Below are positions 2,629 to 48,378 of a stretch of 64,000 bases of DNA, in pieces. The notes under the pieces were generated by a model, which saw only the letters and a list, made by a program, of their open reading frames with translations, had not been told where the DNA came from and did not search any database. The stretch lies in NCBI RefSeq assembly GCF_003334335.1, contig NZ_QOWQ01000009.1. One strand, 5' to 3'. The DNA is from Escherichia coli. GTDB lineage: Bacteria > Pseudomonadota > Gammaproteobacteria > Enterobacterales > Enterobacteriaceae. The stretch's first letter is position 1. Each line of letters begins with the position of its first letter. The position numbers were made by a program, and so were the translations under genes.

Positions 2629-2704
<76 letters not shown>

Positions 2705-2740
2705 AAATTTGAAAAGTGCTGCAAAGCACAGACCACCCAA

Positions 2741-2816
<76 letters not shown>

Positions 2817-2834
2817 AATTCTTCTCTCAATAAA

Positions 2835-3084
2835 ATATCCACAGCGACGCGATGCGTTATTGCTGGTTTTTGTTGTCTCTGACAAACTCTTGTAAACAGA
2901 GTTATCCACAGCCTCAGGCTGTAATCTTAATTTCAAAGAAACTTCGCACGGTGAATAGTATTTTTTTAACCTATTGATAGATAAGTTAAAAATTAAGATT
3001 CCGTTTTGTCGAGTCGATCACTTGACGATTTTATTCGTCTTGAATTGCAATGCGTTTTTATTTTTATTCACAAGCTGTGGATGA
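2835..3084. promoter_or_regulatory. datA: DnaA-box cluster with IHF-like site, consistent with the datA DnaA-titration locus
   Basis: TTATCCACA at 2902-2910 and TTATTCACA at 3064-3072 match TTATNCACA exactly; ATATCCACA at 2835-2843 and minus-strand TCATCCACA at 3076-3084 are 8/9; TATCAATAGGTTA (WATCAANNNNTTR) on minus strand about 2967-2979; location downstream of tRNA-Gly and into queG 3' end fits my recollection of datA. Confidence 0.6.
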
Positions 3085-3085
3085 A

Positions 3086-4223: not shown

Positions 4224-4225
<2 letters not shown>
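3086..4225 (-). CDS. queG: epoxyqueuosine reductase (4Fe-4S, cobalamin-dependent)
   Basis: ORF 3086..4333; MSEPLDLNQLAQKIKQWGLELGFQQVGITDTDL and Cys clusters CGKCVACMTICP / CDDCQLICP; start trimmed to ATG at 4225 (379 aa). Confidence 0.9.
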
Positions 4226-6204
<1,979 letters not shown>

Positions 6205-9417: not shown

Positions 9418-10360
9418 TATCAGTAAGGCGAGCCTGCCTAAGGCGATTTTTTTGATGGGGCCGACGGCCTCCGGTAAAACGGCGTTAGCCATTGAGCTGC
9501 GTAAAATTTTACCAGTAGAGTTGATAAGCGTTGATTCTGCCCTTATTTACAAAGGGATGGATATCGGGACGGCGAAGCCGAACGCTGAAGAGTTACTCGC
9601 CGCGCCGCACCGATTGCTGGATATTCGTGATCCGTCGCAGGCTTACTCGGCTGCTGATTTTCGCCGCGATGCGCTGGCGGAAATGGCCGATATCACCGCG
9701 GCGGGGCGGATCCCACTGTTAGTGGGCGGTACGATGTTGTATTTCAAGGCATTGCTGGAAGGGTTGTCGCCGCTACCGTCGGCAGACCCGGAAGTACGGG
9801 CCAGAATTGAGCAACAGGCGGCAGAGCAAGGTTGGGAGTCATTGCATCGTCAACTTCAGGAGGTAGATCCGGTTGCGGCAGCAAGGATTCATCCAAATGA
9901 TCCACAAAGGCTTTCCCGGGCACTGGAAGTTTTTTTCATTTCGGGTAAAACTTTAACGGAACTGACGCAAACGTCAGGAGACGCTCTACCGTATCAGGTG
10001 CATCAGTTCGCCATCGCCCCGGCGAGCCGTGAACTGCTCCATCAACGCATTGAGCAGCGTTTTCATCAGATGTTGGCTTCAGGTTTTGAAGCAGAAGTCC
10101 GGGCGCTTTTTGCCCGAGGAGATTTGCATACGGACTTGCCTTCCATTCGTTGCGTGGGTTATCGCCAGATGTGGTCTTACCTTGAAGGCGAAATCTCATA
10201 CGATGAAATGGTTTATCGAGGTGTTTGCGCCACGAGACAGTTGGCGAAGCGGCAGATAACCTGGCTGCGTGGTTGGGAAGGGGTTCACTGGCTTGACAGT
10301 GAAAAACCAGAACAGGCGCGTGACGAAGTATTACAGGTTGTTGGTGCTATCGCAGGCTGA
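9410..10360 (+). CDS. miaA: tRNA dimethylallyltransferase
   Basis: 316 aa, [32 protein letters not shown]; overlaps mutL 3' end by 8 nt. Confidence 0.95.
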
Positions 10361-10433: not shown

Positions 10434-10773
<340 letters not shown>

Positions 10774-10829
10774 ACACGGGGAGCCAGCGATCCTGCGTTC
10801 CCCGCTGATCTATTTAGAGGGTTATACGC

Positions 10830-12110
10830 TTGTTTGACCGTTATGATGCTGGTGAGCAGGCGGTACTGGTACACATCTATTTTACGCAAGACAAAGATAT
10901 GGAAGACCTCCAGGAGTTTGAATCTCTGGTCTCTTCCGCCGGTGTCGAAGCATTGCAGGTGATTACCGGTAGCCGTAAAGCGCCGCACCCAAAGTATTTT
11001 GTAGGTGAAGGTAAAGCAGTTGAAATTGCGGAAGCTGTCAAAGCGACGGGTGCTTCGGTCGTTCTTTTTGACCATGCCCTGAGCCCGGCGCAAGAGCGTA
11101 ACCTGGAGCGTTTGTGCGAGTGTCGTGTTATCGACCGCACCGGCCTTATTTTAGATATTTTCGCCCAACGTGCGCGTACCCATGAGGGTAAGTTGCAGGT
11201 TGAGCTGGCGCAGCTGCGCCATCTGGCTACGCGCCTGGTGCGTGGCTGGACCCACCTTGAAAGACAGAAAGGCGGGATAGGTTTGCGTGGTCCGGGTGAA
11301 ACCCAGCTCGAAACCGACCGTCGTTTGTTGCGTAATCGCATCGTGCAGATACAGTCGCGCCTGGAAAGAGTTGAAAAGCAGCGTGAGCAGGGGCGGCAAT
11401 CGCGTATCAAAGCCGACGTTCCTACTGTTTCGCTGGTGGGATATACCAACGCCGGTAAATCTACCCTTTTCAATCGCATCACCGAAGCGCGGGTCTACGC
11501 GGCAGACCAGTTGTTTGCCACCCTCGACCCGACGTTGCGGCGTATTGACGTTGCAGATGTCGGTGAAACCGTACTTGCAGATACCGTAGGGTTTATTCGC
11601 CACCTGCCGCACGATCTGGTGGCGGCATTTAAAGCCACGTTACAAGAGACGCGGCAAGCCACATTACTGCTGCACGTCATTGATGCGGCGGATGTGCGTG
11701 TACAAGAAAACATCGAAGCGGTGAATACGGTTCTTGAAGAGATCGACGCTCACGAGATCCCAACCCTGCTGGTGATGAACAAGATCGATATGCTGGAAGA
11801 TTTCGAACCGCGTATTGATCGGGACGAAGAGAACAAACCGATCCGTGTCTGGCTTTCCGCACAGACCGGAGCGGGGATACCACAGCTTTTTCAGGCTTTG
11901 ACGGAGCGGCTTTCCGGCGAGGTGGCGCAGCATACATTGCGTCTGCCACCGCAGGAAGGGCGTCTGAGAAGTCGTTTTTATCAGCTTCAGGCAATAGAAA
12001 AAGAGTGGATGGAGGAGGACGGCAGCGTAAGTCTGCAAGTTCGTATGCCGATCGTTGACTGGCGTCGCCTCTGTAAACAAGAACCGGCGTTGATCGATTA
12101 CCTGATCTAA
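10830..12110 (+). CDS. hflX: ribosome-associated GTPase HflX
   Basis: 426 aa; (M)[30 protein letters not shown]-domain GYTNAGKST; start codon at 10830 is TTG. Confidence 0.93.
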
Positions 12111-12195
12111 CGGCGTAGCGTCTGAAGCGTGGAGTCATATCCTCTGGCGTCGAAAGACAACAGGGATCACCGCATAACAAATATGGAGCACAAAC

Positions 12196-13455
12196 ATGGC
12201 GTGGAATCAGCCCGGTAATAACGGACAAGACCGCGACCCGTGGGGAAGCAGCAAACCTGGCGGCAACTCTGAGGGAAATGGAAACAAAGGCGGTCGCGAT
12301 CAAGGGCCACCTGATTTAGATGATATCTTCCGCAAACTGAGCAAAAAGCTCGGTGGTCTGGGCGGCGGTAAAGGCACCGGATCTGGCGGTGGCAGTTCAT
12401 CGCAAGGCCCGCGCCCGCAGCTTGGCGGTCGTGTCGTTACCATCGCAGCGGCAGCGATTGTCATTATCTGGGCGGCCAGTGGTTTCTATACCATTAAAGA
12501 AGCCGAACGCGGCGTGGTAACACGCTTTGGTAAATTCAGCCATCTTGTTGAGCCGGGTCTGAACTGGAAACCGACGTTTATCGACGAAGTCAAACCGGTG
12601 AACGTGGAAGCCGTGCGTGAACTGGCCGCTTCTGGTGTGATGCTGACGTCGGACGAGAACGTAGTGCGCGTTGAGATGAACGTGCAGTACCGCGTCACCA
12701 ATCCGGAAAAATATCTGTATAGCGTGACCAGCCCGGATGACAGCCTGCGTCAGGCTACCGACAGCGCCCTGCGTGGAGTTATCGGTAAATACACCATGGA
12801 CCGCATTCTGACGGAAGGTCGTACCGTGATTCGTAGCGATACTCAGCGCGAACTGGAAGAGACGATTCGTCCGTATGACATGGGTATCACGCTGCTGGAC
12901 GTCAACTTCCAGGCTGCTCGTCCGCCGGAAGAAGTAAAAGCGGCGTTTGACGATGCGATTGCCGCGCGTGAAAACGAACAGCAATACATTCGTGAAGCAG
13001 AAGCGTATACCAACGAAGTTCAGCCGCGTGCGAACGGTCAGGCGCAACGTATCCTCGAAGAGGCGCGTGCGTACAAGGCCCAGACCATCCTGGAAGCTCA
13101 GGGTGAAGTGGCGCGCTTTGCTAAACTTCTGCCGGAATATAAAGCCGCGCCGGAAATTACTCGCGAGCGTCTGTATATCGAGACGATGGAAAAAGTGTTG
13201 GGTAACACCCGCAAAGTGCTGGTTAACGATAAAGGTGGCAACCTGATGGTTCTGCCGTTAGACCAGATGCTGAAAGGTGGTAACGCCCCTGCGGCGAAGA
13301 GCGATAACGGTGCCAGCAATCTGCTGCGTCTGCCGCCAGCCTCTTCCTCCACAACCAGTGGAGCAAGCAACACGTCGTCCACCAGTCAGGGCGATATTAT
13401 GGACCAACGCCGCGCCAACGCGCAGCGTAACGACTACCAGCGTCAGGGGGAATAA
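12196..13455 (+). CDS. hflK: FtsH protease modulator HflK
   Basis: 419 aa; MAWNQPGNNGQDRDPWGSS, Gly-rich N-terminus, SPFH/band-7 domain. Confidence 0.95.
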   Translation: MAWNQPGNNGQDRDPWGSSKPGGNSEGNGNKGGRDQGPPDLDDIFRKLSKKLGGLGGGKGTGSGGGSSSQGPRPQLGGRVVTIAAAAIVIIWAASGFYTIKEAERGVVTRFGKFSHLVEPGLNWKPTFIDEVKPVNVEAVRELAASGVMLTSDENVVRVEMNVQYRVTNPEKYLYSVTSPDDSLRQATDSALRGVIGKYTMDRILTEGRTVIRSDTQRELEETIRPYDMGITLLDVNFQAARPPEEVKAAFDDAIAARENEQQYIREAEAYTNEVQPRANGQAQRILEEARAYKAQTILEAQGEVARFAKLLPEYKAAPEITRERLYIETMEKVLGNTRKVLVNDKGGNLMVLPLDQMLKGGNAPAAKSDNGASNLLRLPPASSSTTSGASNTSSTSQGDIMDQRRANAQRNDYQRQGE

Positions 13456-34947: not shown

Positions 34948-35147
34948 AGATACCTCCTCGACGGCTGTTTTTGTGTGCTCTCCTCATGTGGTGATGGTCT
35001 GATTTAATTTTAATCACGGATGAAAAAGTTGATGGCGACCATTTCTGATGCAGTTGTTCAAAAAAACAGCATGATGAAGTGTGATGAACTTCAAATCAGC
35101 GGCTTAGTGGTTATTTGCGAAAGGGGAGATTTATTTCTGCTCTGCCC

Positions 35148-35176
35148 TTGAGTTTAGCAAGGTATGTCAGTACTAT
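35148..35176 (+). promoter_or_regulatory. candidate rpsF operon promoter (-35 TTGAGT, 17-nt spacer, -10 TACTAT) with structured leader downstream
   Basis: Motifs read directly at 35148-35153 and 35171-35176; the leader to 35274 contains inverted repeat CAGCCGA...TCGGCTG, plausibly the autoregulatory structure of this operon. Confidence 0.45.
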
Positions 35177-35256
35177 AACGCGTCATTTTTCAGCCGACCT
35201 TTAACACGTTCCTTGCCTCCCCGGGATTCGGCTGACCCAGACAGGAGGCTGAATAA

Positions 35257-35670
<414 letters not shown>

Positions 35671-35676
35671 TTTCTG

Positions 35677-36223
<547 letters not shown>

Positions 36224-36252
36224 TCGGTCACGGTCCATTAATACGACTTTGA

Positions 36253-36714
<462 letters not shown>

Positions 36715-36738
36715 TTCGTTATTCAACGAGACGTAAAA

Positions 36739-36768
36739 ACGCCGACCATTGGTCGGCGTTTTGCTTTT
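36739..36768. terminator. bidirectional rho-independent terminator (rplI on plus strand; accessory operon on minus strand)
   Basis: Hairpin ACGCCGACC-ATTG-GGTCGGCGT flanked by AAAAA upstream and TTTTGCTTTT downstream. Confidence 0.8.
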
Positions 36769-36825
36769 GTAGCGAGCACTTGCAGATATCGATAAGGGCC
36801 ACAATAAGCAGCCCTACGAAGATAA

Positions 36826-37797
36826 TTACTTAGCTGCCTGAATATCAGCCAGCATTGGGGCAAGGGCTGGGTTGTCCTTAGCGAAGTTTGCGTACATTGG
36901 CTGTACTTTCTCGATAAACGGAGCTTTATCTACCTGGTAGACTTTCACGCCCATTTTATCCAGTTTTGCAAATTCTTGTTTCTCTTCCTCGCTCCACAAG
37001 TCTTTCATGTAGCTCATTGATTCTTTAGCTGCTTTTAATATAACTGCCTGATTTTCCTGGCTAAGTTTATCAAACGCAGCATTGCTCATCAGAACCACAT
37101 CGGGAACCATAGTGTGTTCGTCAAGGCTGAAGGATTTTGCCACTTCACCGTGACGCATGGTAGTCAGCGCCATCACGCTGTTTTCTGCCATATCGACCAC
37201 ACCCTGCTGTAAGGCTGTATACAACTCGCCGTAATCCAGTGGCGTCGGGTTACCGCCCATGACTTTGATCATTTCAACTGCGCCAGGGCTTGGCTGGACA
37301 CGGACTTTCATGCCTTTCAGATCGTCTGGTTTCAGTACTGGTTTATTGCCATAGAAACTGCGGGCGCCTCCATCATAAAAAGTCAGCCCGAAATAACCTT
37401 TGCTTTTCGTTGAGTCGAGGATTTTTCTCCCGATATCGCCCTGCATGACCTGATAATAATGATCACGATCGCGGAACAAATAAGGCAGGCTAAATAATTT
37501 ATAGGAATTTTCAAATGCTTCCATTTCTGCCGCATTGGTTTTTACCAGGGGAATAGCGCCAGAACGAATCAGCTCCATTGTTTCTCGTTGAGTACCCAAT
37601 GTTCCATTTGGATAAATACGAATAGTAATATCACCGTTAGAGTACTCTTTGCTCTTTTTCGCAAAGAACTCCATCGCTTTATGAACAGGATGAGACTTAT
37701 CCTGATTATGACTCAGTTTTAATGTCACTGCCCAGGACTGGCTTGCGGATAACATAAGAACAGCACCGATAATGCCAGCGGATACTTTTATTTTCAT
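36826..37797 (-). CDS. TRAP transporter periplasmic solute-binding protein (DctP family)
   Basis: 323 aa, signal peptide MKIKVSAGIIGAVLMLSASQSWA; DctP-like fold with Arg in YDGGARSFYG at the position typical for carboxylate binding; last gene of operon; AT-rich. Confidence 0.8.
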   Translation of the reverse strand: MKIKVSAGIIGAVLMLSASQSWAVTLKLSHNQDKSHPVHKAMEFFAKKSKEYSNGDITIRIYPNGTLGTQRETMELIRSGAIPLVKTNAAEMEAFENSYKLFSLPYLFRDRDHYYQVMQGDIGRKILDSTKSKGYFGLTFYDGGARSFYGNKPVLKPDDLKGMKVRVQPSPGAVEMIKVMGGNPTPLDYGELYTALQQGVVDMAENSVMALTTMRHGEVAKSFSLDEHTMVPDVVLMSNAAFDKLSQENQAVILKAAKESMSYMKDLWSEEEKQEFAKLDKMGVKVYQVDKAPFIEKVQPMYANFAKDNPALAPMLADIQAAK

Positions 37798-37849
37798 AGA
37801 TGTTCCTTTTCTAATAAATATGGCGGCAGGTGCCGCCAGTGAATGCGCA

Positions 37850-39151
37850 TCAGTAGCCCAGTGCTCTTGGCAATGCCATACTGATTTGCGGAATATAGGT
37901 CACCATTGCCAGCACCAATACCATCACGGCATAGAATGGCAGCATAGGTTTGATAATTTTATTAATCGGTAATTTAGATACACTACAACCGACAAATAAC
38001 ACACTGCCTACAGGCGGAGTACAAATACCGATACACATGTTCAGTACCATGACAATACCAAAGTGAATCGGGTCCATGCCCAGTTCGGTGACAACCGGTA
38101 AAAATATCGGCGTAAAAATCAGTACCGCCGGTGTCATATCCATAAAAGTGCCGATAATCAACAGGATAATATTGATAATAAGCAGGATTATTATTGGGTT
38201 GTCAGAAATAGTGTTAAGCAAATCGAGAATCAGGAAGGGAACGTCAGCGTTTGACATTGCCCATGACATACCCATCGAAGAACCAATTAATAACAAGACA
38301 ATTGCAGTGGTAATAACGGATTCCAGAAATATTTTAGGTAAATCTTTAACTGAGATTTCACGATAAAGAACCAGTGCAAGGAAAAGGGTATAAATTACTG
38401 CAATTGCGGAGGCCTCTGTCGGGGTAAAAATACCACTTAATACACCCCCCATAATTAAAATAATCAGGAAAATACTGGGGATAGCCATCCATATCGCAAC
38501 GCCAGCCTGGCGTAAAGTCGGGCGTTCTGGCTTTGGATAACCGCGACGTACCGCGATAATACCGGCTATTACCATCAGTGCCAGACCCAGCAAAATTCCC
38601 GGAACATAACCCGCCAGGAACAGTGCGGCAATAGAAGTACCACCACTGACCAGTGAATAGACGATTAACGTATTACTTGGTGGAATAAGCAAACCCGTCG
38701 GGGCAGAGGCAACGTTAACCGCAGTACTGAATGCCGGGTCGTAACCCTCTTTAACCTGTTGCGGATGCATGACGCCGCCCATCGCAGCCGCCGAAGCCAC
38801 GGCTGAACCAGAAATTGCCCCGAACAGCATATTGGCGAGAATATTACAGTGGGCAAGTGAGCCTGGCAGACGACCGCCGAGAATACGGGCAAAGTTGATT
38901 AATCGTCGCGCTATTCCTCCATGGTTCATAATGTTGCCAGACAAGATAAAAAATGGGATTGCCAACAACGTAAAACTATCTAACCCGGAGGCTAACTTTT
39001 GGGAAACCACACTCAATGCTGAGTTGAAATCGAGTTGTGTGGAAATTGATGCCAGTGTCGATAAACCAATGGCATAAACAATAGGTACACCTAATGCCAA
39101 CATAAAAAAGAAGGCACCAAATAACACAATAATCGGTAACCAGTAATCCAT
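37850..39151 (-). CDS. TRAP transporter large permease (DctM family)
   Basis: 433 aa polytopic membrane protein, typical DctM N-terminus MDYWLPIIVLFGAFFFMLALGVPIVYAIGLSTLA; GGAG SD before ATG; sampled lines about 30% G+C. Confidence 0.85.
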   Translation of the reverse strand: MDYWLPIIVLFGAFFFMLALGVPIVYAIGLSTLASISTQLDFNSALSVVSQKLASGLDSFTLLAIPFFILSGNIMNHGGIARRLINFARILGGRLPGSLAHCNILANMLFGAISGSAVASAAAMGGVMHPQQVKEGYDPAFSTAVNVASAPTGLLIPPSNTLIVYSLVSGGTSIAALFLAGYVPGILLGLALMVIAGIIAVRRGYPKPERPTLRQAGVAIWMAIPSIFLIILIMGGVLSGIFTPTEASAIAVIYTLFLALVLYREISVKDLPKIFLESVITTAIVLLLIGSSMGMSWAMSNADVPFLILDLLNTISDNPIIILLIINIILLIIGTFMDMTPAVLIFTPIFLPVVTELGMDPIHFGIVMVLNMCIGICTPPVGSVLFVGCSVSKLPINKIIKPMLPFYAVMVLVLAMVTYIPQISMALPRALGY

Positions 39152-39193
39152 AATTTCTCCATTCCTACTATGGTTGGTTGTTGTTTGTTATCT

Positions 39194-39694
39194 TTAGAGT
39201 GGTTGTTTAAGTTCGGTTAAAACCATATCTATGGTGTATATAATAATAAGTACACCACTAATCGGGATGCTCATATAGATATATCCCATTTGCCAGCCTA
39301 AAGCGGGCGAGGTCTGACCTGAATCGAATGTATCCATCGTTAATAGCCCACCACCATATACCATAATGATGGTTGCGAAGATAATAACGATAATCTGAAT
39401 ACACAAAAATAAATGACGTCGGGCTTTTCCTTTCAGCATCATAGGTAGCAGGTCAATCGCCAGATGCCGGTTTTGCCCTGCGGTGTATGCCCCACCAAAA
39501 AGTCCAAGACAAATAAAGAGCAAACGGCTGAGTTCATCTGTAAAAATACTGGGACTAGTAAATATAAATCGTGCAGCCACCTGCCACGTCACACATGCCA
39601 CGATGATCGCCAAAATGGTAATGTTCAATGCTGCAAGCAGAGCATTAATAGATCTAATTATATTTCGCATAGTGATTAACCTTTGCAATATCAT
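39194..39694 (-). CDS. TRAP transporter small permease (DctQ family)
   Basis: 166 aa, four hydrophobic segments, size and position typical of DctQ; start ATG overlaps stop of upstream flavoprotein gene (ATGA). Confidence 0.7.
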   Translation of the reverse strand: MILQRLITMRNIIRSINALLAALNITILAIIVACVTWQVAARFIFTSPSIFTDELSRLLFICLGLFGGAYTAGQNRHLAIDLLPMMLKGKARRHLFLCIQIIVIIFATIIMVYGGGLLTMDTFDSGQTSPALGWQMGYIYMSIPISGVLIIIYTIDMVLTELKQPL

Positions 39695-41772
39695 TCATCC
39701 TGTGGCTGGTAAATTGTCCCATTAAGAAAACCAGGCCAGTTTTTTTCAAACCAAATACCTCGGATAATAGGAAACTCACGAACAGGTGTTTCTCTGACGT
39801 GAAAGATACCGTTGCAATAATGAATAAGTAGTTTATCTTTTTTATCCTCAGTACGCTCTGAACGAAAGCGCCAGGCATCACAAAAACCATTTCGTGTTTG
39901 CGGAATAGAATTTCCATCCCTGTCGAGAATAATACGTGCTCCCCGACTACCACCACCTGCGTCAATATAATGCGTTAATTGCGTTAATACGGCGGCAGAA
40001 GTCAGTGCCATATGCCGCCACATAAACAGCTCGGCAACTTCACCCACATGTTTGATAGCCAATCCATGCCGTTGGACAAATTCGCTCAATAGCAGGGCAT
40101 CGCGAGTGGCGCGTCGGACTTTATCGGCATGGCAAATAAATCCCGCATGGTCAGACATTCGTGCCTGAATTTTTTCTCTCACAACCGACAACGGCATCCC
40201 GGTCCCGTTATCGTGCGCCTGAGTAATGATCTCTCTTATAGAAGCCAGTGTAGGAGCTACCAGCTGTGCTATATCTCCATCAATATTCCGCTTTTGCGTG
40301 CAACCAATAAAACGTGCCAGACGAACAGCAAAAACCTGCCCGGCATTCAATGCTGCACCACCAGGGCGAGTGACGCCGTGTGTGCCAGCAACTTCCCCCA
40401 CGGCGAAACAGCCGGGCAGGGAGGTTTGTCCCCAGATATCCACTTCAATGCCGCCATTCATATGCTGATTATTCATGGCAAACTGCAAAGGCTGTGTGGT
40501 GAGATCGTAACCGTGCATCTTATACAGCGAGATAGACAGCGGATTCATTCGTTGCAGCCGTTCGATGGGCGATGGTGCCAGAGCGTCGTTATTTTCCAGA
40601 TACGCGCGAACGTCGTCGTCCAGTCGATCTAATGAGAACGGCAGGTCACCCGGCACCGCTTCAGGATTGCGATTGAAATCCATAAATACCTGACGCCCTG
40701 ATTGCTGCTCTTGCGCTACTGCCATATCTAACAAGCTGGAGCCAAAATCCATCACCCGAGTGGCGTGGAACGGCCACTGATAGCCTTTACGGAAAATGTT
40801 TGAAGCCAGCTCCTGGGTGGTGCGATAGTAATCCGCGAGGAAGTTATACTCGTTACCCTCAGCATCCACGGAATAGATATACGGGATCACCTGTACATAG
40901 GTGCCGGATAAATTCCACGGAAACGTGCTACGCGGCGTGCCTATACCAAACTGGCTTTCGGTCAGATTGGTTAGCGTCAGGCCTTCCTCCAGCGCCAGCC
41001 CCAGCGAGCCAAAACATTTGTGTGGGTACACACTGTCGCGATAAAGCTCGCCAGGCCCTCCTGTTGCCAGTACCACATTGGGCGCAGTCACAATTGCCAG
41101 CCCCCAAGGGTTATGGGCGCGATGACCGGTCGCGAGGATTGCCCCCGCAACACGGTCTTCGCCGTTTTCGTCACGCTGATGCAGCAGTTTAATCACTGTT
41201 GCACTGGTCAACACTGGAATGGCGAGGCGCTGTACTTCTTCCAACAGCACTTTCACCATTAACCTTGAGGTACGCGGCCCACACGAGGTTGCACGCCCGG
41301 CTTCGTCATGGTCGGTTTGATAACGAAGAATCGCGCCATAGCGATCTTCCGGTAATTCCAGACCAAGATATTGCAACCCGCCAAGAGTGTGCAGAGAACC
41401 TACCGCTTCGACATAAGCGGTGTCGTGATCCATCGCCCCACCGCTCGCCAGTGCCTCTGCCAGTTTGGTGAAGTTGTCGCCGTTGCCCGCGGTAGCGGCG
41501 GTAAACAGTGTCTGTTTATCGGAACCAGAACATGCCGACGTCCCCATATATAACCCGGCGGTGGCGATCAGCACATTTTGCTGGCGGCGTTTAAGTTCCA
41601 CAGCTGCACGCAGCCCGGCTGCACCACTGCCGACTACCAGGGCATCTGTTTGCCAGAGTGGGTAATCAACACCGTCTACCGTGACAACCCATGCGGGCTC
41701 TGCCTGTGCAAAACCCTTTGGGAAAGTAACGTGCGTCAGCGCATCAAGGATGGTGTCATCAAGCTGACTCAT
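39691..41772 (-). CDS. FAD-dependent oxidoreductase, fumarate reductase/succinate dehydrogenase flavoprotein-like (693 aa)
   Basis: N-terminal dinucleotide-binding motif ALVVGSGAAGLRAAVEL; C-terminal FAD motif GCFAVGEVAGTHGVTRPGGAALNAGQVFAVRLARFI; no RSHT-type covalent-FAD His motif seen; ATGA overlaps on both sides. Confidence 0.75.
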   Translation of the reverse strand: MSQLDDTILDALTHVTFPKGFAQAEPAWVVTVDGVDYPLWQTDALVVGSGAAGLRAAVELKRRQQNVLIATAGLYMGTSACSGSDKQTLFTAATAGNGDNFTKLAEALASGGAMDHDTAYVEAVGSLHTLGGLQYLGLELPEDRYGAILRYQTDHDEAGRATSCGPRTSRLMVKVLLEEVQRLAIPVLTSATVIKLLHQRDENGEDRVAGAILATGHRAHNPWGLAIVTAPNVVLATGGPGELYRDSVYPHKCFGSLGLALEEGLTLTNLTESQFGIGTPRSTFPWNLSGTYVQVIPYIYSVDAEGNEYNFLADYYRTTQELASNIFRKGYQWPFHATRVMDFGSSLLDMAVAQEQQSGRQVFMDFNRNPEAVPGDLPFSLDRLDDDVRAYLENNDALAPSPIERLQRMNPLSISLYKMHGYDLTTQPLQFAMNNQHMNGGIEVDIWGQTSLPGCFAVGEVAGTHGVTRPGGAALNAGQVFAVRLARFIGCTQKRNIDGDIAQLVAPTLASIREIITQAHDNGTGMPLSVVREKIQARMSDHAGFICHADKVRRATRDALLLSEFVQRHGLAIKHVGEVAELFMWRHMALTSAAVLTQLTHYIDAGGGSRGARIILDRDGNSIPQTRNGFCDAWRFRSERTEDKKDKLLIHYCNGIFHVRETPVREFPIIRGIWFEKNWPGFLNGTIYQPQDE

Positions 41773-43310
41773 GCATCCTCCATCGGCGTAAACAGGCTAC
41801 TTTCCATCAGGCGTGGGTGCTTGATAATTGGACGGAAAGCCATATACGGCAGAATGTCGCGCTCAATCTCCACACCCGGCGCGATTTCAATTAATTCAAC
41901 GCCTTCTGCCGTTAACTGGAATACTGCGCGTTCAGTGATATACAACACTTCCTGACCACTTTGCTGTGCGTAGGCGGCGCTAAAAGTGATTTTTTCCACC
42001 TTGGTAACCAGTTTAGGGATTTGACCTGACTGGGCGATATGCAAGCCATCTGGTGTTATATCGATCTTGCTGCCTTTAGCGTCGAACGTGCCGCAGAACA
42101 CCACTTTACGGGCATTTTGCGCAATTTCGAGAAATCCGCCGGGGCCAATCAGATTGCCATTGAGATGGGAGACGTTGACGTTACCGTACTGATCCATCTC
42201 TCCCATGCCGAGGAAGGTGATATCGATCCCTCCGCCACTGTAGAACTCAAATTGATCGAGTGATGGAATAATGGCATCGGCGTTGCGGGCGCAGCCGAAA
42301 AACGCATCATCCAGCATCATGCCGTTATGTACGCCTTGCTCGACGCTCAGCCATAAACTTTGGTAAGGAACGCCTTCGCGCAGCGCTACTCCTGGAATGC
42401 CGCCGGGAATACCAAAGCCAAAGTTGGTTGAAGCGCCAGCTACCAGTTCGCGTGCTGCCCGACGGGCAATCAGGCGACGTACCGGATGACTAACCAGTTC
42501 AATAGCGTCGTTAGAACTCAGACGGCGATGTTGGCCGCTGATGGTCAGGTCGTAACCGCCAAGATAGGTTTGTGGTTGTTCGCGGTGTTCAACGATGCCA
42601 TCAACCAGAATGCCCGGTAATTTGACCCGGCGTGGTTCAATCGCGCCAGCTTCCAGCACATCGCGTACCTGTACGAACACTTTGCCGCCGCTGTTGTGTG
42701 CTGCCAGCGCCATGGAATAGCTATCCATATCAATCGCTTCTTCTTCAAGGCTGACGTTGCCTCGAGGATCGGCATAAGTGCCACGCAAAATCGCGTAATC
42801 CACTTTGAAAGGGCGATAACGAAGTTTGGTTTCACCGTCGATTTCAATCAGTTCTACCAGCTCGTCGGTAGTGCATTCATTCGACTTACCGCCGCCATTG
42901 CGTGGATCAACAAACGATCCCAGCCCAACGTGGGTAAAAAGCCCCGGACGTCCGGCGCCGATCTCCCGTAGCAGTGCCTGAATCACGCCACCAGGAAAGC
43001 AGTAGGCTTCAATCGTGTTATTTTTTACCAGCGCCTGCATTTTGGGCGACCAGGTAAAGTGCCCGGCAATAATGCGTTTGAGCATCTCTGCGTGCGCAAA
43101 ACGATTAGTGCCTTTGCAGTCGCGATCGCCAATACCCAGCGAGTGGATTAGCGTCAGGTCGCGAGGGTGTCCGGTTTGCAGGAAACGCGCTTCAATAGCA
43201 GCCAGAATATGGTCGGCTTCCACCATACCGCCGCCGTTACCGCTAATAGCAATAGTCGCACCGTCCTGAATTTGCGCCGCCAGTGCCTCGGCGGTTGTTA
43301 TCTTACGCAT
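41769..43310 (-). CDS. family-I CoA-transferase, fused alpha/beta subunits (YdiF / propionate-CoA-transferase-like)
   Basis: 513 aa; GNGGG-containing N-terminus (ATIAISGNGGGMVEADHILAAI) and overall layout of fused 3-oxoacid/acetate CoA-transferases; family call from memory of fold. Confidence 0.7.
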   Translation of the reverse strand: MRKITTAEALAAQIQDGATIAISGNGGGMVEADHILAAIEARFLQTGHPRDLTLIHSLGIGDRDCKGTNRFAHAEMLKRIIAGHFTWSPKMQALVKNNTIEAYCFPGGVIQALLREIGAGRPGLFTHVGLGSFVDPRNGGGKSNECTTDELVELIEIDGETKLRYRPFKVDYAILRGTYADPRGNVSLEEEAIDMDSYSMALAAHNSGGKVFVQVRDVLEAGAIEPRRVKLPGILVDGIVEHREQPQTYLGGYDLTISGQHRRLSSNDAIELVSHPVRRLIARRAARELVAGASTNFGFGIPGGIPGVALREGVPYQSLWLSVEQGVHNGMMLDDAFFGCARNADAIIPSLDQFEFYSGGGIDITFLGMGEMDQYGNVNVSHLNGNLIGPGGFLEIAQNARKVVFCGTFDAKGSKIDITPDGLHIAQSGQIPKLVTKVEKITFSAAYAQQSGQEVLYITERAVFQLTAEGVELIEIAPGVEIERDILPYMAFRPIIKHPRLMESSLFTPMEDA

Positions 43311-43319
43311 ACAATTTCC

Positions 43320-44102
43320 TTATTGATTATGGAAGCTCACGCTACTTTTTTCGGCAAAGGCGCGCGTCGCCTGCTGGCAATCCTGAGTGGCAGACATTAA
43401 TCCGGCCAGTAGCTGGTGCGGGTAATCGGCATGTTTATTTTCCAGTGCCAGAATCAGTTGCTTAATATGCGCCAGTGCCACCGGGCCGCATTTTTCCAGC
43501 TGCGCTAACTGGTTCGCCATCCAGCTTTCCACCTGTTCTTTTTCTACCACTTCATCAATTAAATTCGCCGCCTGGGCTTCCTGCGCCGTCAGGCGTTTAC
43601 CCAGCATCAGCATCTGGCGACCGACCACCGGACCAACCTGATTAAGCACACGTTCAATGCCCATCCAGCCAGGCACCATGCCGAGCATCACTTCCGGGTT
43701 AGAGAATTTCGCGCCGGGGCGGGCAATACGAATATCGCAGCACAAGGCCAGTTCAATACCACCGCCGATGGTATGACCGTTGAGATTCGCAACGGTTAAT
43801 TGGGGTAAGTTTCGCAGGCGATTAAAAACGTCATTACCGCGTTTAATCCATTTTCTGCCCATATCTAATGGCGAATAGGCCGACCACGATTTAATATCGC
43901 CGCCCGCACAAAAGAATTTATCGCCGGTTGCCGTTAATTCGACTAATCGTAATGTGGTGTCGTTTTCAATTTCATTTAAATAATGGTCGAGAGATTCGAT
44001 CATCTCTTCGTTAATAGCATGACATTTATCTTCACGGTTCAATGTCAGGCGGCAGGAAGCCGCCGCTCTGCTGAACAGAACGGGTTGGTCACTCATGATC
44101 AT
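43320..44102 (-). CDS. enoyl-CoA hydratase/isomerase (crotonase fold)
   Basis: 260 aa; oxyanion-hole motif FCAGGDIK, catalytic Glu motifs GGGIELALCCDIRIA and FSNPEVMLGMVPGWMG. Confidence 0.8.
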   Translation of the reverse strand: MIMSDQPVLFSRAAASCRLTLNREDKCHAINEEMIESLDHYLNEIENDTTLRLVELTATGDKFFCAGGDIKSWSAYSPLDMGRKWIKRGNDVFNRLRNLPQLTVANLNGHTIGGGIELALCCDIRIARPGAKFSNPEVMLGMVPGWMGIERVLNQVGPVVGRQMLMLGKRLTAQEAQAANLIDEVVEKEQVESWMANQLAQLEKCGPVALAHIKQLILALENKHADYPHQLLAGLMSATQDCQQATRAFAEKSSVSFHNQ

Positions 44103-44105
44103 TCC

Positions 44106-44948
44106 TTAACAATAATGCGCGATGCGATCGACGCTAATATCCAGCGTGCTGTTAATATCTTTTTGCCACCAGTACGGCGAGAATATTTCCAGTTCAATAG
44201 CGCCATTAAATCCGGCGTTTTCAACCAGCCGACGAATTGACGGAATATTGATGACGCCATCTCCCGGCATACCACGGTCATTGACCAGATCAGTGGTCGG
44301 CACTAACCAGTCGGAAACATGAAACGCGAGGATGCGTTTTCCGGCACGCAGGATCTGACTGGCGAGATCCGGATCCCACCAGACGTGATAAACATCCACC
44401 GCCACGCCGAGGCCAAACTCACCATCGGGATCGAGTTCATCACACCAGTCCAGCGCCTGGCGTAACGTGCACAGGCAAGAGCGATCGGCAGCTGTCATCG
44501 GGTGCAGTGGCTCCAGCGCAATTGGCACGCCGACATCTTTCGAATGTGGCAGCAACTGGCGAATCCCTTGTTTCACTTGTTCTCGCGCTTCATATAGATC
44601 TTTAGTGCCCGTTGGCAGACCGCCAACCACCTGCATATAACAGGCGGCGTTAAGCACCGCTGCGTCGTCCAGCGCCCGGCGGTTATCATCAATCGCCAGT
44701 TTGCGTTCCGCCAGTGTCGGCGCGGTGTAGTAAGTGCTACGGCACAAACCGGAAACGCTCATGTTACTGGCGGCAAGCTGGTGGGCGATTTGCTGGAGAT
44801 CTTCACCTTGCAACTCCCTGCGCCAGGGAGCAATCGCGCCAATACCACGCGCGGCGCAGGCATCAATAATGGCGGGTAGCGGCGTTTTATAGCCCAGTGT
44901 TGCGGTATTGATACTGAATAAATCCGGGCGTTGTAACAGATCTCTCAT
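44106..44948 (-). CDS. sugar-phosphate isomerase/epimerase, xylose-isomerase-like TIM barrel
   Basis: 280 aa; conserved metal-ligand pattern of the family (IALEPLHP, DVYHVWWD, AIELEIF); the same fold as UlaE in this window but clearly a different sequence. Confidence 0.7.
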   Translation of the reverse strand: MRDLLQRPDLFSINTATLGYKTPLPAIIDACAARGIGAIAPWRRELQGEDLQQIAHQLAASNMSVSGLCRSTYYTAPTLAERKLAIDDNRRALDDAAVLNAACYMQVVGGLPTGTKDLYEAREQVKQGIRQLLPHSKDVGVPIALEPLHPMTAADRSCLCTLRQALDWCDELDPDGEFGLGVAVDVYHVWWDPDLASQILRAGKRILAFHVSDWLVPTTDLVNDRGMPGDGVINIPSIRRLVENAGFNGAIELEIFSPYWWQKDINSTLDISVDRIAHYC

Positions 44949-44957
44949 GATTCAGCC

Positions 44958-45749
44958 TCAGAAGCGCGGCATACTTAAGCCGCCGTCGATGGCGACCGCC
45001 TGACCACAGGTGTAAATCAGTTTACCTTCCGCCATCGCGCGGACAGTGGAAGCAATATCAGCCGGATAACCCCAACGTCCCCACGGCACCAGACCTTTGG
45101 CAATCAGTTCGTCGTAATAAGCCGTTGCCGGAATAGTCATATCAGTTTTGATGAGACCTGGGCGCACTTCATAAACGCCAATTTGTTCATTACAAAGGCG
45201 AGCTGCAAATAGACGAGCAGCGGCAGAAACGGCGGTTTTGGCAATGGTGTATTCGCCGCGATTCATCGCCAGCATGATGGCGTTGATGGAACTGACGAAA
45301 ATAATCGAGCGGTGCGGCAGTTCCGCTTCCGGTTTCGGCTGTGCCAGTAAACGCTTACTGAATGCCTGAGCAAGGAAGAACGGCGCGCGGGTGTTAATGG
45401 CAATGTTTTGATCGAAGCTGTCTGGTTCGAGGTCGAGGAGGTCACCGCGTTTTTTCACTGAAATGCCTGCGTTGTTGAGCAGGCAGTCCAGACGTCCCCA
45501 CAGGTTTTGCGCCGCGTCGAGCATCTCTTCATGCAAGGAGAGATCGCCGACATCGGCAGGGAAGCAAATCACTTCCACGCCTTCAGCTATACATTCTTGT
45601 TGTGTGATATGCAGTTTTTCTACGCTGTCGGCATCGGGAAGATCGTTAATCAGCAGGTTAAATCCGCCACGAGCAAGCTCCAGCGCACAGCCCTTTCCAA
45701 TACCACGAGCGGCTCCGGTAATCACGGCAACAGGACGAGTGGATTTCAT
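44958..45749 (-). CDS. short-chain dehydrogenase/reductase (SDR), first gene of accessory operon
   Basis: TGAARGIGKG cofactor motif, NNAG, catalytic YTIAK; ORF track begins at a TTG (45791); first ATG at 45749 gives the usual spacing before the Gly motif. Confidence 0.85.
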   Translation of the reverse strand: MKSTRPVAVITGAARGIGKGCALELARGGFNLLINDLPDADSVEKLHITQQECIAEGVEVICFPADVGDLSLHEEMLDAAQNLWGRLDCLLNNAGISVKKRGDLLDLEPDSFDQNIAINTRAPFFLAQAFSKRLLAQPKPEAELPHRSIIFVSSINAIMLAMNRGEYTIAKTAVSAAARLFAARLCNEQIGVYEVRPGLIKTDMTIPATAYYDELIAKGLVPWGRWGYPADIASTVRAMAEGKLIYTCGQAVAIDGGLSMPRF

Positions 45750-45795
45750 ACAATAGCTCTCTTTTTTTGAATATTGTTTTCTAAGTGACAATTAG

Positions 45796-45839
45796 CTTGC
45801 GACGTGCCGCAAGAAAGATCAACCATCTGGTTGGTTGAT
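45796..45839. promoter_or_regulatory. two adjacent palindromes in the divergent control region between the accessory operon and its TetR gene (candidate operators)
   Basis: CTTGCG-ACGTGC-CGCAAG (45796-45813) and ATCAACCA-TCTGGT-TGGTTGAT (45818-45839, with nested AACCA-TC-TGGTT); read directly. Confidence 0.5.
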
Positions 45840-45961
45840 ATGCGATAGTGATCACAGGACATTTGATAACTTGATGAAAGTACAAGTTTTTATCCTTTTT
45901 ACTGGAGCTTCTAATTAATCGGGTTAAGATAGTTATCTTGAAGAGGTCGTGGGGAAGCGTT

Positions 45962-46609
45962 ATGTATCTTGATACCAGCAACGTACAGAGCCTGAAGGAA
46001 AAGCTGCTGTTATGCGCGGTTAATGAATTTGCCGAATATGGTTATGAAGGGGCCAGGGTCGATAATATTGTTAAGGCTGCGGGGTGTAGTAAACAGACGG
46101 TTTATCATCACTTTGGTAATAAAGAAAATTTATTTATTGAAGTACTGGAATATACCTGGAACGATATTCGACAAAAAGAAAAGGCCCTTGATTTCTCAGA
46201 TCTTCCGCCACAAAAAGCCATTGAGAAAATTATTGATTTTACATGGGATTATTATATTGCTAATCCCTGGTTTTTAAAAATTGTGCATAGTGAAAATCAA
46301 AGTAAAGGTGTGCATTATGCAAAATCACAGCGTCTCTTAGAAATTAACCATGCGCACTTGCAGTTAATGGAATCCTTATTGGATGAAGGGAAGAAACACA
46401 ATATTTTTAAGCCAGATATCGACCCATTGCAGGTGAATATTAATATTGCTGCGCTTGGCGGATATTATTTGATCAACCAGCATACGCTTGGCCTGGTTTA
46501 TCATATCAGTATGGTTTCCCCCCAGGCACTGGAAGCCAGACGTAAGGTCATCAAAGAGACAATCCTTAGCTGGCTTTTGGTTGACCCTTCATCTACCGCG
46601 CACGAATAA
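45962..46609 (+). CDS. TetR-family transcriptional regulator
   Basis: N-terminal [47 protein letters not shown]; ORF track start 45938 is TTG, first ATG at 45962; 3' end overlaps ytfB 3' end by 17 nt. Confidence 0.8.
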
Positions 46610-47231
46610 AACTGCCATCCGGCTGGCGGGTGAACAGGACCTGTTGATTATTCCCCGTATCAATGGTTAAGCCCGTCACCACGCCGCTGGCGTTCTGGCG
46701 GATTTTCACCATTTGCCCGTTTTGCAAATTACTCAGCGGCTTACCCGCGCCTTCTACCTGCGCCATTGCATAGACATCGGTAGCGGGCAGTCCGTGGTCG
46801 CGGAACAGCTGCGCCATCGTTTTACCGGGTTCGACACGGTAAGAGCGCCATTGATTATCAATTCCGCTATCTGGCTGGAATGGTTGTGTTTGGGTAGTTT
46901 GCGGCTGTTCTTCTGGCTGGCCTTCCTGTATAGGTTCTGGAGCGACCGGAGCCACCTGATCAGGATCATTTTGTGGTGTGACTAATTGCGCCCGCAGCTG
47001 TTCTTCTGTCGGCGGTTGTGATTGCGACTGAATATCTAACTGCGCTTCACGCGTCACCACCGGCGCGTTGGGCGTATCATCAGATGGAAGCAGAAATCCG
47101 ACCACCAATATAATGGCGGCAATAATGATCCCCCGACGATGCATCGGCGGCAGCGGGTCCATGAAGCGAAAATTGTCCGGCGCGTGCCAGACTTTCTCCA
47201 GGGTTGGTTTTAGTTCAAAGCGCCCGGGCAT
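46593..47231 (-). CDS. ytfB: cell-division protein YtfB (OapA/LysM-like)
   Basis: ORF 46593..47267; start set to ATG 47231 (212 aa, [46 protein letters not shown]). Confidence 0.88.
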
Positions 47232-47449
47232 GGTTTCCTCCTGCTCCGCGTCTTGTTCCTCAATCATAGCCTATGAATAAGCTAACGCTATGATGTCCGT
47301 GGTAAACCCGCCTTTATTATATTCATACGGGATATTGCTATTGTTTCTTTTTCCCCGGGATTTGTCATCATTCCTGCGACAAAGTTTTACCCAAAGAAGT
47401 GTGGCTGATATGCTGCCCGCTACTTTTATACCCTAAGAAAGGAAATACG

Positions 47450-48070
47450 ATGACCACCCCAACTTTTGACACCATCGAAGCGCAAGCAAGCTACGGCATT
47501 GGTTTACAGGTAGGCCAACAACTGAGTGAATCTGGCCTGCAAGGGCTGCTGCCGGAGGCGCTGGTGGCTGGTATTGCAGATGCGCTGGAAGGCAAACATC
47601 CGGCTGTTCCGGTTGATGTGGTGCATCGCGCGCTGCGTGAAATCCACGAACGCGCCGATGCCGTTCGTCGTCAGCGTTTCCAGGCGATGGCTGCCGAAGG
47701 TGTGAAATATCTTGAAGAAAATGCCAAAAAAGAAGGTGTGAACAGCACCGAATCTGGCCTGCAATTCCGCGTGATCAACCAGGGTGAAGGCGCAATTCCG
47801 GCACGTACTGACCGCGTTCGTGTTCATTACACCGGTAAACTGATCGACGGCACCGTGTTTGACAGCTCCGTTGCTCGTGGTGAACCCGCTGAATTCCCGG
47901 TTAATGGCGTGATCCCTGGCTGGATTGAAGCACTGACTCTGATGCCGGTAGGTTCTAAATGGGAACTGACTATCCCGCAGGAACTGGCATATGGCGAGCG
48001 CGGCGCAGGCGCATCCATCCCTCCGTTCAGCACCCTGGTGTTTGAAGTCGAACTGCTGGAAATCCTCTAA
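47450..48070 (+). CDS. fklB: FKBP-type peptidyl-prolyl cis-trans isomerase
   Basis: ORF 47399..48070; start set to ATG 47450 (206 aa, [25 protein letters not shown]); FKBP domain at C-terminus. Confidence 0.93.
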
Positions 48071-48378
48071 GCAGCGCATTCTGTTCCCCTCGAACCAGAG
48101 GGGAGCAGGCATTCAGCAATAAACCCTTCAGTTTGCCAAACGGCGCTATTTTGTGTTGCAAAGACCCCGTAAGCGTGTATTTTTGTGAGCTGTTTCGCGT
48201 TATCACCGTGATATGACACTCACTTTAAACATAAAATTAACATTAGATCTAAATCTTAGTATTCATCCCGCGTATTGTTACCTAATATCGATGAGTCCCG
48301 ATACAGATTCGTCGTATCATAGACTGACTAAAGGCCGTAGAGCCTGAACAACACAGACAGGTACAGGAAGAAAAAAAC

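Follow-up and report, generated by a model that had tools for sequence, protein, structure and literature searches.

Alternative arrangements of a probably old, TetR-regulated catabolic operon between rplI and ytfB in Escherichia coli

Our comparative analysis of a 64,000-nucleotide stretch of Escherichia coli DNA (contig NZ_QOWQ01000009.1, hereafter the window) makes it very probable that the 10-kb block separating rplI from ytfB is an old TetR-regulated catabolic operon and no inserted island, that it lies at a site with multiple arrangements, and that the K-12 form of this site is a derivative carrying two deletions (Table 1). The locus is multi-allelic and core-flanked and is probably shaped by homologous recombination and deletion, which represents ordinary genome plasticity. 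In the history that we propose, the TetR-regulated operon would have been resident for a long time between rplI and ytfB in Escherichia; no fewer than two further enterobacterial genera also carry it there. Variation would start directly past the rplI terminator, which would act as an anchor for homologous recombination. The importer would be a swappable cassette, either the TRAP system DctPQM, as in the window, or a sugar-acid-type MFS permease, and the short space separating the terminator from the importer gene could be empty or hold yjfZ or hipBA. The K-12 form would have arisen from the yjfZ+MFS form via two illegitimate deletions, one of 7.3 kb and one of 541 bp between 8-bp direct repeats. 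What was left would be yjfZ, a 102-bp piece of the ketoreductase gene in decay, and ytfA, a TetR gene that lacks both its promoter and its DNA-binding domain. From the sharing of alleles we infer that homologous recombination within the conserved flanking sequences probably moved the arrangements between lineages.

Table 1. Features of the rplI-ytfB region in the window.
Feature	Position	Strand	Remarks and source
rplI	36265..36714	+	Last gene of the rpsF-priB-rpsR-rplI operon; conserved left anchor; annotation of 100%-identical strain 190 (RefSeq)
GC-rich hairpin ending rplI	36736..36762		Terminator scan and RNA folds, both strands
Left breakpoint	36767..36768		BLAST breakpoints and junction sequences
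TRAP-allele-specific tract	36768 to about 39985	-	TRAP genes and last ~98 flavoprotein codons (39691 to about 39985)
DctP	36826-37797	-	TRAP tract
DctM	37850-39151	-	TRAP tract
DctQ	39194-39670	-	TRAP tract
Enzyme block	39691..45749	-	Five genes common to TRAP and MFS alleles; RefSeq annotation, NCBIfam, Pfam on K. huaxiensis orthologues
FAD_binding_2 flavoprotein (FAD-oxidoreductase)	39691-41772	-	693 aa; enzyme block
CoA-transferase	41769-43310	-	Enzyme block
Enoyl-CoA hydratase	43320-44096	-	Enzyme block
Xylose-isomerase-like TIM barrel	44106-44948	-	Enzyme block
SDR ketoreductase	44958-45749	-	Enzyme block
Ketoreductase fragment kept in K-12-type genomes	45559..45660	-	Decayed, 102 bp, 79-85% identical
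Second K-12 deletion	45663..46211		541 bp, between 8-bp direct repeats TCCGCCAC (45663-45670, 46204-46211)
Palindrome ATCAACCA-N6-TGGTTGAT	45818..45839		In 212-bp divergent intergenic region; candidate TetR operator
TetR-family regulator	45962..46609	+	Intact, 215 aa; divergent from operon; RefSeq annotation, NCBIfam
TetR/ytfB convergent overlap	46593..46609		17 nt; conserved in K-12 and Klebsiella huaxiensis
ytfB	46593..47231	-	212 aa, core gene; C-terminus identical with and without the operon

The left boundary is sharp. An earlier note on this DNA had proposed that the block abuts the rplI terminator hairpin, and every allele examined indeed splits just past the hairpin. This breakpoint is common to the TRAP, MFS, yjfZ+MFS, hipBA+MFS and K-12-type alleles and to other species; in the allele comparisons, identity is 98-100% through 36767 and then homology is gone. 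The rplI protein is 100% identical in the Escherichia outgroups, and the end of the rplI terminator is the last strongly constrained base and therefore a natural anchor for homologous recombination. The hairpin comprises 12 pairs with z-scores from RNA folding of -4.0 on the plus and -4.7 on the minus strand, and is followed on its 3′ side by TTTTGCTTTT on the plus and TTTTTAC on the minus strand. With such a stable GC-rich stem and a U-run on each strand, it does look usable by the minus-strand operon too, as had been noted, and it could also end this convergent operon by bidirectional termination.

At the right, the boundary depends on the comparator: it lies at 46207 within the TetR gene relative to K-12, and at about 39985 within the flavoprotein gene relative to MFS alleles. 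Homology of the window to K-12 runs to 36767 and resumes from 46207, with an extra 81%-identical BLAST match at 45559-45660. The K-12 pseudogene ytfA (b4205) corresponds to the 3′ two-thirds of the TetR gene (46207-46609) and matches residues 83-215 with 100% amino-acid identity. Because ytfA is this part of the same gene, K-12 has the same 17-nt overlap with ytfB; however, the K-12 version has lost its promoter, its start codon and its DNA-binding domain, whereas the window gene is intact and divergent from the operon. The earlier note had correctly placed the TetR stop (46609) 17 nt inside the convergent ytfB, whose stop codon is at 46593-46595, but its placing of the right edge at ytfB does not hold: the overlap in K-12 (locus L002, 4237-4253) is identical, and homology is already back at 46207. 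Likewise, its suggestion that the C-terminus of YtfB may differ is contradicted by the comparison of the K-12 and window proteins, which differ by I41V alone, and by the last 100 nt of ytfB, which are 100/100 identical. Since K-12 shares the overlap and the YtfB C-terminus is unchanged, ytfB is no island edge. In a survey of TetR-family regulators, every E. albertii and E. fergusonii strain examined had ytfA, whereas in E. coli it was restricted to a subset of strains (PMC6790063).

The K-12 locus can be read as a shortened yjfZ+MFS allele. Positions 1001-3747 of K-12 (L002) are colinear with 1-2748 of a yjfZ+MFS allele (L003), then jump to 10079-10180 and from there to 10727. The first deletion junction has weak microhomology (5/6 bases), and the second deletion takes out the 5′ end of the ketoreductase gene, the promoter region between the divergent genes and the first 82 TetR codons, which encode the DNA-binding domain. 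Within the retained 102 bp, a small sample, differences are spread evenly over the codon positions in three deletion alleles (7/6/6, 7/3/5 and 9/5/7), while seven functional ketoreductase alleles show a third-position bias over the same stretch (e.g., 0/1/6, 2/2/7 and 3/3/25); the remnant thus appears to evolve without coding constraint. We also considered that the fragment could be a diverged but functional foreign allele. This was ruled out by the missing third-position bias and by its about equal distance (79-85% identity) from every Escherichia allele. A probe across both deletion junctions matched 2,227 genomes with 92-100% identity, which indicates that the double-junction deletion probably represents one old event, its age resting on 102 bp. 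Together, the remnants, the outgroup operons at the locus and the short direct repeat at one junction argue for derivation of the empty K-12 form by deletion.

The same operon was found at the rplI-ytfB locus in E. whittamii, E. albertii, a cryptic Escherichia lineage, Entomohabitans and Klebsiella huaxiensis, and in Escherichia sp. MOD1-EC7003 it could be followed from rplI to the CoA-transferase gene, where the contig ends. Its presence at this locus in other species and genera means that the K-12 state is a loss and not an ancestral empty site. In K. huaxiensis the order is rplI-EamA-DctPMQ-operon-TetR-ytfB with the same 17-nt overlap. The cryptic Escherichia lineage carries the TRAP form in a 16-kb colinear region of 92.6% identity, in which the TRAP genes have diverged to the same extent as the flanks. 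An MFS importer occupies the locus in E. whittamii, Escherichia sp. MOD1-EC7003 and Entomohabitans. Outside Escherichia the distribution of the operon is patchy: Entomohabitans alone had it among one representative genome per species, and K. huaxiensis came from a protein search run separately. In place of strictly vertical descent, genera may have exchanged the operon via the conserved flanks.

These comparisons bear directly on how the block came to its position. The earlier note regarded it as an old replacement by homologous recombination in flanking core genes rather than a recent mobile-element insertion; age, conserved recombinogenic flanks and the absence of a mobile element stand, but the polarity is reversed, K-12 being the loss, and the right edge is not at ytfB. 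As an observation that would count against it, the note had named the presence of the same genes in K-12, and this is partly the case: TetR residues 83-215 and the 102-bp ketoreductase fragment are there. A model with a K-12-like empty site as the ancestral state, into which the island was swapped via recombination in rplI and ytfB with alteration of the ytfB 3′ end, would agree with the lack of mobility genes and repeats and with a left edge exactly where the conserved rplI terminator ends. Nevertheless, we consider it very unlikely, given these remnants in K-12, a ytfB 3′ end that is identical with and without the operon, and the operon at the same locus in other species and genera.

A recent insertion by an IS element, a transposon or an integrative island whose traces were missed has a negligible probability. 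As stated in the earlier note, integrase, transposase, IS inverted repeats, tRNA and flanking direct repeats are all lacking: ARAGORN found no tRNA or tmRNA gene in 30000-52000, the longest direct or inverted repeats that the left edge shares with any of the candidate right edges were 7-8 nt (shuffle mean ~7), a repeat scan of 36600-47400 yielded nothing flanking a boundary, and none of 10 proteins matched mobility families in PHROGs or NCBIfam, the ORFs in 36768-46609 all being transport, enzyme or regulator genes. IS remnants or att-like repeats at the borders, which the note had listed as evidence against its view, were looked for in the window and not found. Copies of IS609 and IS1 do occur in the rplI-ytfB interval of some strains; however, they lie within ytfA (corresponding to window position 46502) or transporter genes and at no breakpoint, and the window itself is without IS. 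Terminal inverted repeats and target duplications are absent as well, the intergenic gaps of the block measure only 20-212 bp, and the TRAP genes of the 92.6%-identical lineage diverged like the core flanks. The block resembles classical integrative islands, which are tRNA-linked and carry an integrase and direct repeats, in its strain-variable presence and perhaps in its partly low G+C content, but integrase, tRNA site and flanking repeats are all missing from it. The TRAP and TetR parts have a G+C content of 37-47%, against 50-57% in the enzyme genes, and the low values hint at an older foreign origin of these parts.

Where the window has the TRAP tract, other E. coli carry a cassette with an MFS transporter. 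TRAP and MFS alleles show 60-75% identity up to about 39985 and 95-100% past this point, and the enzyme block to its right is 97-100% identical to the allele of strain B. Flavoprotein residues 1-595 group by species and are 99% identical between the E. coli TRAP and MFS alleles; from residue 596 to the end, identity between these alleles is only 61%. Low identity at the 3′ end of the gene as a misalignment in a MAFFT bin was dismissed, since direct comparison confirmed that it is real. Each importer thus comes with its own last ~98 flavoprotein codons, which places the right-hand crossover within the flavoprotein gene at about 39985. Both cassette ends show an abrupt change from near-identity to deep divergence, as for allelic replacement by homologous recombination. 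Grouping of the C-terminal part by importer across genera was not borne out, as the E. coli TRAP version is 58% identical to that of K. huaxiensis TRAP and 61% to that of E. coli MFS; this part of the protein is simply fast-evolving and deeply split.

A variant of our main reading keeps the K-12 form as deletion-derived but takes MFS as the ancestral importer in Escherichia and the TRAP cassette as a secondary import from another enterobacterium, with crossovers at the rplI terminator and in the flavoprotein gene. We regard this variant as possible, though somewhat less probable than its opposite. It would account for the MFS importer in E. whittamii, Escherichia sp. MOD1-EC7003 and Entomohabitans, for TRAP modules that are very uniform in E. 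coli (1,405 of ~1,480 at >=99% identity, most MFS modules being at 95-99%), and for a flavoprotein C-terminal part that differs between E. coli alleles as much as between genera. On the other hand, TRAP is present at normal species-level divergence in the cryptic Escherichia lineage and at the same locus in K. huaxiensis, and could therefore be equally old. Moreover, the search for a donor found none: the nearest TRAP binding protein outside Escherichia, that of K. huaxiensis in a protein search, is only 81-84% identical, the next relatives (Vibrio and others) drop to ~60%, and none of 80 loci encoding flavoprotein relatives had a close TRAP system outside Escherichia (best 41-55%). It appears unlikely, but is conceivable, that the deeply diverged TRAP, MFS and deletion forms have coexisted for about as long as the Escherichia species have been separate, as a maintained polymorphism affecting the route of sugar-acid uptake or the choice of acid, with the flavoprotein tail functionally coupled to the importer.

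Allele counts were taken among 5,426 complete E. coli genomes. The TRAP form accounts for ~27% (1,446-1,456 genomes), the MFS-transporter form, including its variants with yjfZ or hipBA, for ~31% (1,674) and the deletion form for 41%; a full-length TetR gene together with ytfB was counted in 3,132 genomes, yjfZ in 2,523 and hipBA in 1,041. K-12 belongs to the deletion and strain B to the MFS form. One locus (L091, CP125919.1) was left out as a probable mixed or mosaic assembly, being 89% identical and gap-ridden with embedded K-12-like fragments. The operon is thus still intact in ~58% of complete E. coli genomes, and the K-12 reference shows a degraded state of this catabolic operon, whose ruins are ytfA and the spacer between yjfZ and ytfA. 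The base-level breakpoints and allele frequencies can be used for pangenome or GWAS work on this operon.

None of these findings is surprising in kind. E. coli is known for core-flanked hotspots of gene gain and loss and for cassette loci, for example the O-antigen genes flanked by galF and gnd. Like these, the rplI-ytfB interval lacks mobility genes and holds alternative gene sets between conserved genes, which are probably exchanged via flank homology. It differs in being small (1-10 kb), in having one breakpoint within an enzyme gene, and in offering two importers for one otherwise common pathway plus a deletion form. It provides a clean case of two unrelated importers exchanged ahead of one common pathway.

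The pathway around the 693-aa flavoprotein is uncharacterised and probably handles a sugar acid; it is common in E. coli but invisible to K-12 genetics, and literature searches for the operon, based on gene names, protein accessions and PDB codes of the relatives of the TIM barrel, brought up no relevant work. The best solved relatives of DctP include 4OVR, 4X8R, 4N8Y and 4N15 (E-values 1e-66 to 1e-71). Among these, 4X8R and 4N8Y are glucuronate- and galacturonate-bound TRAP binding proteins, respectively (PMC11668362), and 4N15 has served as modelling template for the glucuronate binder STM3169 of Salmonella (PMC7660916). Hexuronate-binding TRAP transporters are among the closest known systems, but the neighbours in the window are CoA-transferase, hydratase and flavoprotein genes instead of uxuAB/uxaC, which leaves room for another sugar acid or an organic acid as the substrate. 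The TRAP and MFS importers probably transport identical or similar sugar acids.

The divergent operon is presumably under the control of the TetR regulator, whose N-terminus matches a TetR-type domain (PF00440 and PF17938 on the K. huaxiensis orthologue). Around the palindrome of the intergenic region, surrounded by DNA that did not align, positions 45817-45855 are 87% conserved in Entomohabitans.

Our comparison of the locus between rplI and ytfB across strains and species reverses the polarity proposed in the earlier note, which had treated block 36739-47231 as an inserted island: the catabolic operon is the older state and the K-12 reference carries a deletion. Positions 35000-49000 match E. 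coli strain 190 (NZ_CP020520) at 100% identity, and the RefSeq annotation of that strain gives the gene order tabulated here; NCBIfam and Pfam assignments are consistent with it. An Rfam search revealed nothing beyond the RpsF leader.

Features of the rplI-ytfB locus in window coordinates, with genes from the RefSeq annotation of strain 190
Feature	Position	Strand	Remark
RpsF leader (Rfam RF02893, 110 bits)	35193-35277	+	upstream of rpsF; expected in such a ribosomal-protein operon
rpsF-priB-rpsR-rplI		+	left end of locus
rplI hairpin	36736-36762	both	candidate two-way terminator
Divergence point	36767/36768		right after the rplI terminator
DctP, DctM, DctQ (TRAP importer)		-	right of rplI
Swapped tract	36768 to about 39985		three TRAP genes and last ~98 flavoprotein codons
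FAD-dependent oxidoreductase (flavoprotein), 693 aa	39691-41772	-	
Acyl-CoA:acetate/3-ketoacid CoA-transferase, then enoyl-CoA hydratase		-	after oxidoreductase
Sugar-phosphate isomerase/epimerase-family TIM barrel, then SDR ketoreductase		-	after hydratase
Isolated K-12 match	45559-45660		102 bp, 81% identity, inside ketoreductase gene
Direct repeat TCCGCCAC	45663-45670 and 46204-46211		8 bp; flanks 541-bp deletion
Candidate TetR operator	45818-45839		perfect palindrome, 8-bp arms, ATCAACCA-N6-TGGTTGAT; divergent ketoreductase/TetR intergenic region
TetR/AcrR regulator	45962-46609	+	divergent from operon
IS609 site in ytfA (equivalent position)	46502		arrangement with IS609
TetR/ytfB overlap	46593-46609		17 nt, convergent
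ytfB	46593-47231	-	convergent with TetR; fklB and cycA next

BLAST homology to K-12 ends at 36767 and starts again within the TetR gene, at 46207; in between lies the isolated ketoreductase match. The translated K-12 pseudogene ytfA is 100% identical to TetR residues 83-215. K-12 therefore retains remnants of the operon, namely ytfA and the ketoreductase fragment. The TetR stop does lie inside ytfB as described; however, ytfA and ytfB share that 17-nt overlap in K-12, and the K-12 and window ytfB genes agree over their final 100 nt (the sole YtfB difference is I41V), so that this conserved overlap is no island edge and the YtfB C-terminus is independent of the operon. The breaks actually fall at 36767/36768, within the flavoprotein gene at about 39985, and, for the K-12 deletions, at 45559, 45660 and 46207.

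The sequence itself had been read accurately, and a mobile element was correctly dismissed. No tRNA or tmRNA was found in 30000-52000, none of the ten block proteins matched a mobility family, and the intergenic gaps of just 20-212 bp leave no room for IS remnants. When the left edge was compared with every candidate right edge, the shared words (7-8 nt) were no longer than in shuffles, and a general scan revealed no repeat flanking any boundary. The left edge at the rplI terminator also held, since all arrangements diverge directly after it, including those of E. whittamii, Escherichia sp. MOD1-EC7003 and Entomohabitans. On either strand the hairpin folds into a strong stem (z = -4.0 on plus, -4.7 on minus), followed by TTTTGCTTTT on the plus and TTTTTAC on the minus strand, and could by its sequence terminate in both directions; the proposed two-way action is to this extent a possibility.

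Six arrangements were distinguished in E. coli: the TRAP type of the window (rplI, TRAP, five enzymes, TetR, ytfB); the same with an MFS importer instead (e.g. strain B); the MFS type with yjfZ or with hipBA adjoining rplI; the K-12 type (rplI, yjfZ, ketoreductase fragment, ytfA, ytfB); and the K-12 type with IS609 (tnpA/tnpB) in ytfA. Among 5,426 complete E. coli genomes, the TRAP module was present in 1,446 (the whole 14 kb in 1,456), the MFS module in 1,674, yjfZ in 2,523 and hipBA in 1,041, while a probe over both K-12 deletion junctions matched 2,227 at 92-100% identity. Full-length TetR plus ytfB occurred in 3,132, matching the sum of TRAP and MFS, so that the operon persists in ~58% and the deletion form accounts for 41%. 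Subtracting the counts leaves roughly 300 genomes with yjfZ+MFS and roughly 340 with MFS only.

A small slot between the rplI terminator and the importer stop codon varies in cargo by lineage, holding nothing (about 40 bp), orphan yjfZ (DUF2686) or the hipBA toxin-antitoxin pair, and in other genera an EamA transporter and a MaoC-like hydratase (e.g. compared loci L003 1772-2846, L005 1769-3975, L011 13470-15330 and L089 10975-12100). For the one hipA copy inspected (L005), the annotation records a frameshift. IS609, an IS200/IS605-family element with a partial tnpA and an intact TnpB/InsQ RNA-guided nuclease gene, interrupts the ytfA remnant of O157:H7 and of many further genomes with the deletion (L006 3146-4894; L087 about 3040-4747), among them nine of the 12 deletion-type rows in an evenly spaced sample; its site is not at a deletion junction. 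In single strains (H31, H35, H43, H112), an occasional IS1 copy breaks TRAP, MFS or hipBA genes, which inactivates the importer secondarily.

Polarity was addressed by a flavoprotein scan of one genome per species, followed by tblastn mapping. E. whittamii has rplI, MFS, operon, TetR, ytfB, fklB and cycA, and Entomohabitans teleogrylli the same order with EamA and MaoC-like genes after rplI. Escherichia sp. MOD1-EC7003 has rplI, MaoC-like, MFS, flavoprotein and CoA-transferase genes up to a contig end; in E. albertii, operon, TetR and ytfB are present, with a contig end inside the flavoprotein gene. The TRAP type recurs in a cryptic Escherichia lineage, in a genome that bears the label E. coli (L007). 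It shares 16 kb of colinear sequence with the window at 92.6% identity, and its TRAP genes (91-93%) have diverged as much as ulaF and cycA. Klebsiella huaxiensis, the nearest non-Escherichia relative for DctP, has rplI, EamA, DctPMQ, operon, TetR and ytfB, the last two again overlapping by 17 nt; its proteins share 76-95% identity with those of the window. Because the operon occupies the same locus in other species and genera, it predates E. coli here. Some exchange between genera via the conserved flanks is possible, given the patchy distribution outside Escherichia. The locus is core-flanked, with several arrangements and a reference-strain deletion, which is useful to know and not surprising. 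The palindrome in the divergent intergenic region is kept in Entomohabitans, whose surrounding spacer did not align.

The K-12 form derives from the yjfZ+MFS allele (L003) by two deletions, of 7.3 kb and 541 bp, as indicated by the jumps in colinearity: K-12 follows L003 through yjfZ to ~100 bp short of the MFS stop codon, then continues at 10079-10180 (ketoreductase interior) and from 10727 (TetR interior). The 7.3-kb junction has matching bases at just 5/6 positions. With the 541-bp deletion went the region of the divergent promoter, the candidate operator and the DNA-binding domain of TetR. What survives of the ketoreductase gene shows 79-85% identity to all Escherichia alleles, and its differences spread evenly over codon positions (7/6/6, 7/3/5 and 9/5/7 in three deletion alleles), whereas in functional alleles most differences fall at third positions (0/1/6, 2/2/7, 3/3/25). 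This reflects neutral decay following an old inactivation. Since the junction probe aligns in one piece even at 92% identity, the deletion appears to have happened once and long ago, although 102 bp permit rough dating only.

BLAST homology with MFS alleles begins at 39709; in direct comparison, identity is 60-75% to about 39985 and 95-100% beyond, a switch that ends the swapped tract inside the flavoprotein gene. Flavoprotein residues 1-595 cluster by species, with 99% identity between the TRAP and MFS alleles of E. coli; the remainder is 61% identical between these alleles, a depth as between genera. As this tail does not group cleanly by importer type, we do not claim co-evolution of tail and importer. 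E. coli TRAP modules are more uniform than MFS modules; TRAP also occurs in the cryptic lineage and Klebsiella.

The closest solved relatives of DctP include 4X8R with glucuronate and 4N8Y with galacturonate bound (PMC11668362); the glucuronate binder STM3169 was modelled on 4N15, and the same paper describes 4N91 and 4MHF as binding glucuronate (PMC7660916). The MFS protein is nearest the D-galactonate-transporter subfamily TIGR00893, scoring below the curated cut-off. On this basis, both cassettes resemble importers of sugar acids or organic anions that supply one pathway, which we infer to comprise the CoA-transferase, hydratase, SDR, TIM-barrel enzyme and fumarate-reductase-like flavoprotein. 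A literature search found no paper on the operon, and the flavoprotein, of the FAD_binding_2 type, had no solved-structure relative at E <= 1e-10. Its homologues (54-62% identity) in Rhizobiales, Rhodobacterales, Planctomycetota, Lentisphaerota and Verrucomicrobiota have as neighbours either TIM-barrel plus SDR genes or CoA-transferase plus hydratase genes; the flavoprotein thus seems to represent an uncharacterised enzyme family.

Around 355 E. coli genomes (e.g. strain d1-58) carry a deeply diverged 1.65-kb tract, equivalent to about 45750-47400 (10750-12400 in compared locus L088), spanning TetR, ytfB and both adjoining intergenic regions. It is ~79% identical to the window and every Escherichia species sampled and 73% to Klebsiella, between flanks of 98-100%. 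Here TetR has 212 aa and YtfB 209 aa (annotated just as LysM-like), the genes abut without overlap, and the YtfB C-terminus FIRAR is kept. The tract appears to have been imported by recombination from a relative that has not been sampled. Furthermore, one E. coli genome (CP125919.1, 4978345-4999316) carries a TRAP-type copy that is only 89% identical and has 123 gaps, broken-up genes and embedded pieces of K-12-like remnants, between flanks of 97-100% identity, probably a mixed-culture or mosaic assembly artefact.
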